The notes below the pieces were generated by a model. It did not search any database, had not been told where the DNA came from, and saw nothing but the letters and a program-made list of their open reading frames with translations. Of a DNA stretch of 64,000 bases, positions 47,569 through 50,374 are shown piece by piece. The position numbers and the translations under genes were made by a program. The stretch lies in the NCBI GenBank assembly GCA_963703345.1, contig OY969814.1:96001-160000 (forward strand), given 5' to 3'. Source of the stretch: an uncultured Chloroflexia bacterium. Its GTDB lineage: Bacteria > Chloroflexota > Dehalococcoidia > DSTF01 > JALHUB01. Position 1 is the first letter of the stretch, and each line of letters begins with the position of its first letter.

Positions 47569-48903
47569 CTAGCTTGTGTTGATTCGAAGCAGCTCGGCAA
47601 GCAGGCCGCCGTCGCAGCGCTCACTCAGCGTCACGGTCGCGACGCGATTCTCGAGCGGTGCGTCCGCGGGCGTCAGGACGCGGATGTAGTTGTCCGTCAG
47701 GCCTTCCCATAGCGACTGGCACCCGGCCGGACCGCGCAGTTTCTTCTCGAAGAGCACTTCGGCGGTGCGGTTCTGGAAGCGGGAGAGGAAGCTGGCTCGT
47801 AGCTCCTCGCCGACGGCCAGCATGGTTTGCACGCGTTCTCGCTTTGCCTGCGCGCTCACCTGGTCAGGCATCTTCGCCGCGAGTGTGCCGGGCCGCGACG
47901 AAAACGGGAAGACGTGAAGAGCCGCGAACTCGGCCTCGCGACAGAACCGGCGCGTGGCGTCAAAGTCGGTCCCGGTCTCGCCCGGAAAGCCGACGAGCAC
48001 ATCAGTCGTGACGGCCGCGTCGGGAAGCTTTCGCCTTATAGCCGCCAGCGCTTGCGCGAACTGTCGCGTCGCATAGCGACGGCGCATGCGGTCCAGCACG
48101 TCGTCGCTGCCGCTTTGTAGGGGGATGTGGAAGTGGCGGCAGAGGCGTGGGTCGTCCCAGAGGTCGAGCAGGGCAAAGGTAATGTCCTGCGGCTGCAGCG
48201 ACGACAGGCGGATGCGCGGGACCGTGGTGCGCTCCAGCACGAGTCTGGCCAGCTTGACGAGGTCGACCTCTTCGCCGGTGTCGCGCCCGTAGGCGCCGAG
48301 CTGCGTCCCGGTGAGGACCACTTCTTTGACGCCATCGGCCTCCGCGGCTTGAACCGCTCGGATGACATCTTCGGCGGCCACGCTTCGCTCGCGGCCACGA
48401 GTCTGCGGAACGATGCAGAAGGCGCAGACGTCGTTGCAGCCCTCCTGAATCTTGATGAAGGATCGCGTCCGAAGGCGGCCGTTCCCGTCGAAGCAAGGGG
48501 CCGGCAGAGGTATGTTCTCGAGAAGAACGGCGGCCGCCCGTTCCTTCTCCCGGTTGGGTAGGACGGCGTCGGCCCCCAGCGCGGATGCGGCGGCGGGCGT
48601 GGCTACGTCCGCATAGCAGCCCGTAACGATGATCCGTGCCTGCGGCGAAAGACGTCGCGCGAGGCGGATGAGGTGCCGCGCTTTGCGCTCCGCGACGTGG
48701 GTGACGGCGCAGGTGTTTATCAGGAAGGCATCAGCCGGCCCCGCGCGGTCAATAACGCGGCAGCCCGCCTTCACGAGCTCGCCCGCCATTGCCTCCGCCT
48801 CGGCCTGGTTGAGCTTGCAGCCGATCGTCAGCACGGCGACTGTGAGCGGCGATGAAGGCGAACGTTCTTTGATTCGCTTTCGAGCGACGGTTTCCGCGAT
48901 CAC
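47569..48903 (-). CDS. mtaB: tRNA t6A37 methylthiotransferase
   Basis: GCKLNQAE, NTCAVT, KIQEGC..CAFC, HFHIPLQSG, HVFPFS.RPGT, TDNY. Confidence 0.93.
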   Translation of the reverse strand: MIAETVARKRIKERSPSSPLTVAVLTIGCKLNQAEAEAMAGELVKAGCRVIDRAGPADAFLINTCAVTHVAERKARHLIRLARRLSPQARIIVTGCYADVATPAAASALGADAVLPNREKERAAAVLLENIPLPAPCFDGNGRLRTRSFIKIQEGCNDVCAFCIVPQTRGRERSVAAEDVIRAVQAAEADGVKEVVLTGTQLGAYGRDTGEEVDLVKLARLVLERTTVPRIRLSSLQPQDITFALLDLWDDPRLCRHFHIPLQSGSDDVLDRMRRRYATRQFAQALAAIRRKLPDAAVTTDVLVGFPGETGTDFDATRRFCREAEFAALHVFPFSSRPGTLAAKMPDQVSAQAKRERVQTMLAVGEELRASFLSRFQNRTAEVLFEKKLRGPAGCQSLWEGLTDNYIRVLTPADAPLENRVATVTLSERCDGGLLAELLRINTS

Positions 48904-48909
48904 GCCTTC

Positions 48910-48937
48910 ATGATAACCGATGGCAGGGGTGTGTCAA
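48910..48937 (-). promoter_or_regulatory. promoter of mtaB operon, probably leaderless transcript
   Basis: TTGACA-N16-TATCAT, 6 nt before the GTG start, no SD. Confidence 0.7.
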
Positions 48938-48998: not shown

Positions 48999-49109
48999 CT
49001 AGCAGCCGCAGCGCGTGAAACCGCAAATAGGGCAGCGGATGCAGCCTTCACCGTGGACAAGAGGGCCGCCGCAATCGGGACAACGGGAGTGACGGTGCTT
49101 CTTCTTCAT
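48999..49109 (-). CDS. small Cys-rich zinc-ribbon protein, 36-37 aa
   Basis: (M)MKKKHRHSRCPDCGGPLVHGEGCIRCPICGFTRCGC; AAGGAG 7 nt before ATG 49109; dedicated promoter. Confidence 0.8.
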   Translation of the reverse strand: MKKKHRHSRCPDCGGPLVHGEGCIRCPICGFTRCGC

Positions 49110-49125
49110 CATCCAACTCCTTAGC

Positions 49126-49139
49126 AGAACATATGTACT
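49126..49139. promoter_or_regulatory. putative LexA (SOS) box 1
   Basis: AGAAC-ATAT-GTACT, one mismatch to AGAAC-N4-GTTCT, at the predicted transcription start. Confidence 0.75.
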
Positions 49140-49146
49140 CTCAGCC

Positions 49147-49175
49147 AGCATAGAGAATATATGTTCTGTTGTCAA
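49147..49175 (-). promoter_or_regulatory. sigma70 promoter of the zinc-ribbon gene with LexA box 2 (49154-49167) in its spacer
   Basis: TTGACA-acAGAACATATATTCTc-TATGCT, 17-nt spacer. Confidence 0.8.
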
Positions 49176-49231: not shown

Positions 49232-50374
49232 ATGCGAATACTGGCATGCCCGCAAGAGTTCAAGGAGAGCCTCACCGCCGGCCAGGCCGCGGGGGCAATC
49301 GCCGTCGGCGTTCGAAGGGCCGGCCCCGAGATCGAAGTCGACCTGGCGCCGATGGCCGACGGGGGGCCAGGCACGATAGACGCTGTGCTCTCGTCGCTGG
49401 AAGGTCAGCGCCGGAAAGCCACGGTGCACGACCCCCTGGGGCGCTTGCGCGAGGCGCGCTGGGCGATGCTCGACGACAGCAAAACCGGGCTCATCGAGAT
49501 GGCGGAGGCTTCCGGGCTGGCGCTCTTGCGGCCTGAGGAGCGAGACCCGCGCCGCACAAGCACCTACGGGACGGGCGAGCTCATTCGTGCTGCCCTGGGC
49601 GAAGGCTGCCGGCGACTGGTCGTCGCTATCGGCGGAAGCGCCACGAACGACGGCGGCGCGGGAATGGCGCAGGCGTTGGGCGCGCGACTGCTCGACACGC
49701 AAGGCAAGGATCTGGAGCCCGGAGGCGCCGCTCTAGCAGGGCTACAACGGATAGACGTTTCGGAGCTCGATGCGCGGTTGCGCTCCTGCGAGGTCGTCGT
49801 TGCCGCCGACGCCGTCAACCCGCTGCTCGGTCCCGCGGGTGCCAGTCTTGTCTATGGGCCGCAAAAAGGAGCGACACCAGAGGTCGTGGCGGCGCTGGAG
49901 GCCGCCCTCCAGCGCTTCGCCGAGATCGTGCGGCGCGACCTCGGCCTGGATATCGCTTCCGTCAGCGGAGCGGGCGCTGCCGGCGGATTGGGCGGCGGAC
50001 TTGTCGCCCTTCTGAAGGCCCGCATCACTTCTGGCGCGGAGCTGGTGGCGGAGGCGATTGATCTCGCAGGTCAAATCGAACAGGCCGACGTCGTCTTCAC
50101 CGGCGAAGGGCGACTGGACGCGCAGACGGCGTACGGGAAGTCGGTCGCGATTGTGGCGCGGCTGGCGAGGAAGCGCGGCCGTCCGGTCATGGCCTTCGCA
50201 GGCACCGTGGCCAGCGATTTCGATCTTGCGTCTATCGGTCTCGACGCCGCTATCCCTATCGCGAGGGGGCCGGCGGCGCGAGAGGAGATGTTCGCGCAGG
50301 CGGGCGAACTGCTTTCGAACGCGGCTGAGCAGGCGACGCGGCTACTGCTTGTAGGGCGGTCCTTCGCCGGCTGA
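49232..50374 (+). CDS. glxK: glycerate kinase (GlxK/GarK family)
   Basis: FKESL, MADGG, IEMAEASG, GGSATNDGG, YGPQKGA, GAGAAGG, TGEGRLD. Confidence 0.93.
   Translation: MRILACPQEFKESLTAGQAAGAIAVGVRRAGPEIEVDLAPMADGGPGTIDAVLSSLEGQRRKATVHDPLGRLREARWAMLDDSKTGLIEMAEASGLALLRPEERDPRRTSTYGTGELIRAALGEGCRRLVVAIGGSATNDGGAGMAQALGARLLDTQGKDLEPGGAALAGLQRIDVSELDARLRSCEVVVAADAVNPLLGPAGASLVYGPQKGATPEVVAALEAALQRFAEIVRRDLGLDIASVSGAGAAGGLGGGLVALLKARITSGAELVAEAIDLAGQIEQADVVFTGEGRLDAQTAYGKSVAIVARLARKRGRPVMAFAGTVASDFDLASIGLDAAIPIARGPAAREEMFAQAGELLSNAAEQATRLLLVGRSFAG

Follow-up and report, generated by a model that had tools for sequence, protein, structure and literature searches.

A LexA-boxed zinc-ribbon microprotein of Dehalococcoidia that resembles the tail of class II ribonucleotide reductases

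DinI, SulA, YneA, and TisB are small, non-catalytic proteins that are controlled by LexA and induced by DNA damage, and p15PAF and p21 are small proteins that gate PCNA. The protein reported here comes closest in sequence to a part of class II ribonucleotide reductases (NrdJ). The CRD of these enzymes, a region of 150-220 aa that either forms one chain with the catalytic barrel or pairs with it, contains an IscU-like domain and a cysteine finger (PMC5704485 and PMC9669993, for the text available). For the NrdJ of S. nassauensis, the available part of PMC5704485 proposes four tail cysteines as zinc ligands and two as a redox pair, with all six required for the electron relay. NrdJ tails were also able to reduce the active site in a different subunit, and a separately expressed tail domain did not restore activity, although this domain aggregated; the native reductant was not found in that part of the study (PMC5704485). 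In split class II enzymes, the whole CRD (IscU-like part and finger) is encoded separately as NrdJb and completes a tail-less NrdJa (PMC5704485, PMC9669993). PMC9669993 describes the same finger together with NrdJb, and the words standalone and stand-alone are absent from its available text.

A second point of comparison is the set of proteins that bind the β-clamp through short peptides. Both types of clamp motif are defined in the available part of bioRxiv 10.64898/2026.05.27.728225, where the partners include Pol IV (QLVLGL), Hda (QLSLPL), and Pol III alpha (QVELEF).

We analysed a window of 64,000 nucleotides, by which we mean the whole stretch of DNA presented above. Its host genome, G000, is a single contig of 2.28 Mb with 64% G+C. 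An earlier note on the window, written from its letters, had pointed to a very short ORF with a ribosome-binding site, a promoter of its own, and two LexA-type boxes, and we found every one of these elements in its place. The locus and its surroundings comprise the following features:

47569..48903, minus strand: mtaB methylthiotransferase, the downstream neighbour
48910..48937, minus strand: separate sigma-70-type promoter of mtaB, TTGACA-16-TATCAT
48999..49112, minus strand: microprotein ORF of 37 aa, MMKKKHRHSRCPDCGGPLVHGEGCIRCPICGFTRCGC (36 aa if started at the second ATG, 49109)
49117..49122, minus strand: Shine-Dalgarno sequence AAGGAG, from sequence inspection
49126..49139, no strand assigned: LexA-type box 2, AGTAC-ATAT-GTTCT, AGTACATATGTTCT, over the predicted transcription start
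49147..49152, minus strand: -10 hexamer TATGCT of the microprotein promoter, from a promoter scan, 17 nt from the -35
49154..49167, no strand assigned: LexA-type box 1, AGAAC-ATAT-ATTCT, AGAACATATATTCT, inside the -35/-10 spacer
49170..49175, minus strand: -35 hexamer TTGACA of the microprotein promoter, which is of the sigma-70 kind, from the same scan
49232..50374, plus strand: glycerate kinase, the divergent upstream neighbour

The second ATG (49109) sits 7 nt 3' of the AAGGAG at 49122-49117, and the frame is closed by an in-frame stop 59 codons ahead of the first cysteine. Around the microprotein, the scan gives 2 promoter-like sites in 2 kb, compared with 0.1 in shuffled sequence. The two boxes flank the -10 hexamer, each with one mismatch to AGAAC-N4-GTTCT, and the matrix score of box 2 is the third-best in the host genome. 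Both neighbouring genes serve as synteny markers: glycerate kinase is also found beside distant homologues and mtaB lies downstream in 63 of 139 loci, where it is probably not a functional partner of the microprotein. The mtaB promoter recurs 3' of the ORF in many relatives of the same family. In the window (48903-48937) this promoter is near-consensus, and the GTG start follows the end of its -10 at 7 nt, a distance that suggests a leaderless mtaB message.

The gene is conserved far beyond the window. Of 60 relatives in the order of the window, 57 have a verified stand-alone copy, in each case with TTGAC upstream of the ORF; the gene was not found in the relatives G033 (93% complete) and G043 (83%), and G045 enters only the tallies. 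A class-wide search returned short-ORF copies in 13 further families (f24, f85, f88, f92, f97, f98, f101, f105, f111, f117, f118, f131, and f137), and the loci were read for 11 of them, which places copies in at least 11 further families of Dehalococcoidia. Among the matches listed, those from f7, f8, f9, f10, f15, and f19 are nearly all long NrdJ frames, as are almost all of those from the other classes sampled. From another class comes one possible homologue (L210/L221), which lacks a box and is excluded from our counts, and the viral contigs searched gave a single match (L349). Comparing 18 relatives with the window over a core of 21 codons, approximate counting gives a pS of 0.65 and a pN of 0.031, a ratio of 0.048. 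The microprotein gene is under purifying selection, and the earlier proposal of a real, conserved, stand-alone microprotein holds. Among the 120 database matches listed, of 363, homologues are named hypothetical or 'uncharacterized Zn finger', or are mislabelled, and no description of this family appeared among the papers listed in our searches of the open literature. A second ribbon copy in one genome (L060, G053:C171) is degenerate and has neither promoter nor boxes, and four other short stand-alone proteins (P0132, P0168, P0179, and P0160) end in an NrdJ-like ribbon.

The LexA-type boxes are conserved together with the ORF, as the earlier note had suggested they might be. At least one box lies within 100 nt of the start in 104 of 105 distinct promoters (3.5 in shuffles) and two boxes are present in 91 (0.07 in shuffles), while the control region, the 100 nt 3' of the stop codon, has a box in 1 of 101 cases. 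The first box is positioned 7-10 nt after the start of TTGAC in 90 of the 105. These promoters were de-duplicated from 135 loci that were selected for a TTGAC at most 200 nt upstream and not for a box; NrdJ tails were dropped, together with the few copies that lacked TTGAC or a callable start or lay at contig edges. Forty further loci from other families have TTGAC and a box in 35 cases, the rest being two degenerate copies, two that resemble pieces of nrdJ, and one from another class without a box.

The same box, which we take to be the published LexA box of Dehalococcoides, precedes lexA in all 22 loci parsed (31 fetched, 9 unparsed; shuffle mean 0.95). The single lexA of G000 has a perfect GAAC-N4-GTTC upstream, and the best site in this genome for a matrix derived from the microprotein promoters lies ahead of an operon of two translesion genes:

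G000:C1:310877-315760, minus strand: dinB/imuB-like gene and dnaE2 (L350)

In the comparison with lexA and recA that the earlier note had proposed, lexA has the box, and recA in G000 has a weak site only (score 6.9). High-scoring boxes are no more numerous genome-wide than in shuffles (14 versus 16, 12, and 7 at score 14), so that the signal lies in position and conservation and not in number. Co-occurrence of lexA with the microprotein is uninformative because 363 of 401 genomes of the class have lexA. Because the boxes are conserved at the microprotein promoters and also stand before lexA and dinB/imuB-like-dnaE2, we regard repression of the microprotein by LexA as a strong prediction, very probably correct, and by its sequence the microprotein qualifies as a putative member of the LexA regulon. 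The SOS regulon of these bacteria, a large class from soil, peat, and water of which most are uncultured, would thereby gain a gene that is as yet uncharacterised.

The ORF encodes a cysteine-rich ribbon. Aligned with the NrdJ of PMC5704485 (available text), from which we assigned the cysteine roles, C11, C14, C27, and C30 are the predicted zinc ligands and C24 and C35 occupy the positions of the NrdJ-type redox pair; C37 is an extra cysteine. The earlier note had likened the protein to the C-terminal ribbon of NrdJ, a likeness supported by the best NCBIfam match, which covers the final 34 positions of PRK08665, an NrdJ model (E 1.3e-8), and by the tail of the second host NrdJ, to which the protein is 58% identical over 26 residues. 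The E, the G, and the six cysteine positions are common to 26 Dehalococcoidia NrdJ tails, and the only match in PHROGs is an RNR tail. Searches elsewhere gave no Pfam match above the cut-off, only generic CxxC matches by sequence in the PDB, hypothetical-protein clusters with a weak IBR lead (11% of members) in the ESM Atlas, and nothing near the gathering score in Rfam. The AlphaFold model is a three-stranded ribbon (pLDDT 80.5) whose structural neighbours are generic ribbons (best Foldseek E 0.41, best Z 3.1), with no significant match to a particular solved zinc-ribbon family such as PriA, NrdR, TFIIB, or NudC, and this lack of a significant match to the model does not make the fold a novel one.

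Microprotein and NrdJ finger thus have in common the pattern C-x2-C-x9-C-x2-C-x2-C-x4-C with E-G-C and C-G-[FY], and the three-stranded ribbon seen in the microprotein model (PMC5704485, PMC9669993, available text). They differ in that the microproteins are free-standing proteins of 30-100 aa (37 aa in the window, compared with 150-220 aa for the CRD) with no IscU-like part and with their own boxed promoter, and in that they combine an essentially invariant G-P, a signature absent from most NrdJ tails, with an optional redox pair and a clamp-type or basic arm. Like NrdJb, the microprotein is a part of the NrdJ C-terminus encoded by a gene of its own; however, it corresponds to the finger alone, its gene lies away from nrdJ, and the NrdJs of the host lack nothing. 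To judge from these comparisons, the microprotein is neither NrdJb nor an NrdJ domain in place. It likely originated from a duplicated nrdJ end. In a tree of 137 ribbons, a single unstarred branch holds 22 of the 23 NrdJ tails; with only 29 columns, this tree gives neither the direction of origin nor the order of losses.

Across 139 family loci the four ligand cysteines are invariant, G16, P17, E22, and G23 are conserved at 96-99%, and C24 and C35 are conserved at 87% and 80%. Of its 37 residues, 7 are cysteines and 3 are histidines, and the protein could in principle be a damage-induced zinc or thiol buffer, or a redox sensor, with no specific partner. The conservation of G16, P17, E22, and G23 exceeds what a buffer needs, and we give this explanation only a slim chance.

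A closer connection to NrdJ was assessed in the host itself, which has a tandem of two class II nrdJ genes that differ from each other:

G000:C1:2069142-2077872: the two nrdJ genes (L351), ahead of yggS-proC-recA

The earlier note had raised the possibility that the host's nrdJ lacks the ribbon; on the contrary, both NrdJs end in a six-cysteine tail of their own. We therefore rejected a split-gene, NrdJb-like arrangement, and because both tails are kept the microprotein can be taken neither for a split subunit nor for a relic. The idea that an nrdJ duplicate has decayed to this 3' fragment, or that the ORF arose by chance, draws on its homology to the nrdJ end and on two g9 genomes in which the gene stands ahead of yggS-proC-recA, where nrdJ ends in G000. 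Such decay, which the earlier note had named among the findings that would overturn its view, is contradicted by the intact host NrdJs, by the low pN/pS over the 18 relatives, by a promoter, RBS, and boxes of its own in at least 16 families, and by the distinct G-P signature, and is extremely improbable.

NrdJ is present in all 15 other microprotein-bearing genomes that we tested. Two of them, both from f24, have a tail-less NrdJ, and the microproteins of these two genomes lack the redox pair. The tail-less NrdJs (L329 and L330) are open frames of 599 and 613 aa in genomes that also have a tailed NrdJ. Completion of a truncated enzyme is thus excluded as the role of the microprotein, since the host NrdJs are tailed and the tail-less ones of f24 are paired with redox-dead microproteins. 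Both cysteines of the redox pair are kept by 103 of 131 distinct proteins, a retention that suggests that most lineages are under selection for NrdJ-like chemistry, and by all 18 proteins of the window's family; the pair is complete in only 1 of 14 proteins in f2 and in none in f111 (0/5), f101 (0/4), and f137 (0/1). Because of these losses, electron relay cannot be the function of all members.

These results bear on the possibility that the microprotein mimics the NrdJ tail, docking at the active-site cleft or on the reductant and acting either as an electron relay in trans, which would raise dNTP levels for repair, or as a decoy, which would lower them. The match to the PRK08665 and host tails, the positions shared with the 26 Dehalococcoidia tails, and the occurrence of NrdJ in every genome tested are consistent with it, and it is at its strongest in the window's family with its fully retained pair. 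A tail is also able to act on other subunits, and a native reductant did not emerge (PMC5704485, available part). Neither nrdJ gene of G000 is preceded by a box, so that an SOS link to the reductase would need a factor like the microprotein. On the other hand, both host enzymes have their own tails, the two f24 genomes pair tail-less enzyme with redox-dead microprotein, and C24 and/or C35 are lost in several lineages although the relay requires all six cysteines; moreover, the separate domain failed to restore activity, even if aggregation may qualify that result (PMC5704485, available part). A trans-acting redox module or modulator of dNTP synthesis, as the earlier note had it, is consequently less well supported as a function of the whole family, and we consider mimicry of the tail, the main rival to our preferred reading, possible but on balance unlikely.

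The N-terminal arm ahead of the ribbon provided a different lead. When a relaxed pattern is used, 40 of 131 genome-derived proteins have a motif of the form Q-phi-x-L-x-L or Q-phi-x-L-F, as in β-clamp partners, N-terminal to the ribbon (shuffle mean 1.2, max 6); with a stricter pattern and database matches included, 83 of 295 have it (shuffle mean 2.3, max 8; 1.5 expected from host ORFs). It takes several forms: QLRLPL or QMRLPL in f117, f118, f111, and f137; QFSLF or QFSLL in f101; QLPLL in f105; and QVPLAL, QLPLML, and QLELAI in f24. Between the motif and the first cysteine the distance is 3 to 49 residues, and 66 of the 83 instances, which have one spacing and come from related families, are not independent. 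In the model of one motif-bearing homologue the motif is outside the ribbon, in an arm without secondary structure. Since motif-bearing and motif-less genes both occur in the mtaB neighbourhood, they are positional orthologues. Homologues in f105 (e.g., L133, L202, and L208) have an N-terminal S-L-D-L-F or S-T-E-L-F, like a pentamer without its Gln, which we did not count.

On the side of the clamp, 27 Chloroflexota clamps are without variation at the DnaN residues R176, L177, M370, and P371, which we take to line the pocket for the peptide. The host DnaE2 contains the hexamer QMPLPL. The motif, shared with the known clamp partners, lies in an unstructured arm; those partners are large enzymes, whereas the microproteins concerned have 45-100 aa and no catalytic domain, and the window's copy has no motif. 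We recognised the motif only post hoc, and at its third position Arg predominates where the consensus calls for Ser or Asp; loss of the negative charge weakens binding, and for the B. subtilis clamp the binding of hexamers is at least 10 times weaker (bioRxiv 10.64898/2026.05.27.728225, available part). In the order to which the window belongs, all 58 proteins, the window's own included, are without the motif. The window's protein has a basic arm, KKKHRHSR, in its place, as do most of the 58, and at least four Lys/Arg among the last 12 arm residues are found in 14 of 18 proteins of f1, 12 of 14 of f2, 10 of 12 of f4, and 0 of 12 of f5. The clamp-type motif is explained neither by mimicry of the NrdJ tail nor by a buffer or sensor.

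Every member combines three features, namely a promoter with boxes, an arm at the N-terminus, and a zinc ribbon whose surface is conserved, whereas clamp motif and redox pair may each be present or absent. We tentatively favour, at somewhat less than even chances, the reading that the microprotein is an SOS-induced binding accessory at damaged forks, tethered by the clamp or by DNA, and not an electron carrier. Cleavage of LexA would free the promoter, and the arm would then tether the protein at the fork, through the peptide pocket of the β-clamp in motif-bearing lineages, while the lineage of the window would use a Lys/Arg/His patch that likely contacts DNA or else an acidic partner. The four invariant cysteines would bind zinc, and the conserved G-P-x4-E-G surface would be offered to a partner. 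As an outcome, access to the clamp or fork may be gated, with the replicase braked or the co-regulated ImuB-DnaE2 mutasome steered. A fork accessory seems likelier than a spare enzyme part because many relatives have a clamp-type motif and several lack the redox cysteines, and is further favoured because the boxes also precede lexA and dinB/imuB-like-dnaE2 and because the motif exceeds shuffles in several forms and spacings. Weighing against it are the post hoc recognition of the motif, the kinship of its bearers, the Arg at its third position, and the 103 of 131 proteins that keep the redox cysteines. For the window itself the role is borrowed from relatives, because its own order lacks the motif.

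The two features could also work together, with the arm on the clamp or DNA and the ribbon recruiting or recharging NrdJ, so that dNTP synthesis would be brought to stalled forks and to synthesis by ImuB-DnaE2. Such a two-ended adaptor is suggested by the 28 of 131 proteins that have both a clamp-type motif and a full redox pair, and by two f111 NrdJs with QLALPV or QLPLL before their own ribbon. The gap between motif and ribbon is mostly 5 residues, which is short for bridging two large proteins; clamp motifs are not enriched in NrdJ linkers (3 of 51; shuffle mean 1.0, max 6); and f2, which lacks the clamp motif and has mostly lost the redox pair, keeps the gene and its boxes. We judge the adaptor improbable. 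If true, it would give a handle on the reductant of CRD-type NrdJ and would couple dNTP synthesis directly to stalled forks. In the two f111 NrdJ linkers (L331 and L332), the QLALPV and QLPLL lie 14-15 residues before the ribbon and are possibly clamp motifs within a ribonucleotide reductase.

The loss of the redox pair in several lineages and the β-clamp-type motif N-terminal to the ribbon in relatives are new observations. The family amounts to a natural dissection, with lineages that have arm motif and redox pair, only one of them, or neither, and this mix makes testable both what the zinc tail of NrdJ binds to and whether bacteria gate the sliding clamp with a non-catalytic microprotein once DNA is damaged.

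The target may lie outside the replisome altogether, as would be the case for an SOS brake on growth or division, or a small toxin, of the SulA, YneA, or TisB kind. Tight repression is typical of harmful SOS genes, and the microprotein is very small and has one of only two promoters seen in G000 with two strong boxes. It has no transmembrane segment and no family match, and neither DinI, SulA, YneA, and TisB nor p15PAF and p21 were matched by sequence, family, or fold in Pfam, NCBIfam, and the PDB. We think such a brake or toxin very unlikely, and G000 holds a better candidate for this role in a 31-aa hydrophobic ORF with two boxes.

That ORF (L352; G000:C1:2018785-2018877, minus strand) lies behind a TTGACA and two LexA-type boxes, is present in 13 of 17 genomes of the same family and in none of 13 others, and is a candidate membrane-bound SOS division inhibitor. 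Five further promoters in G000 with a box next to TTGAC (G000:C1:620874, 622572, 646869, 664344, and 1188878) precede genes of unknown family, one of which encodes a 178-aa coiled-coil-like protein. Four of the five cluster within 45 kb, possibly marking a mobile or phage-like region under LexA control.
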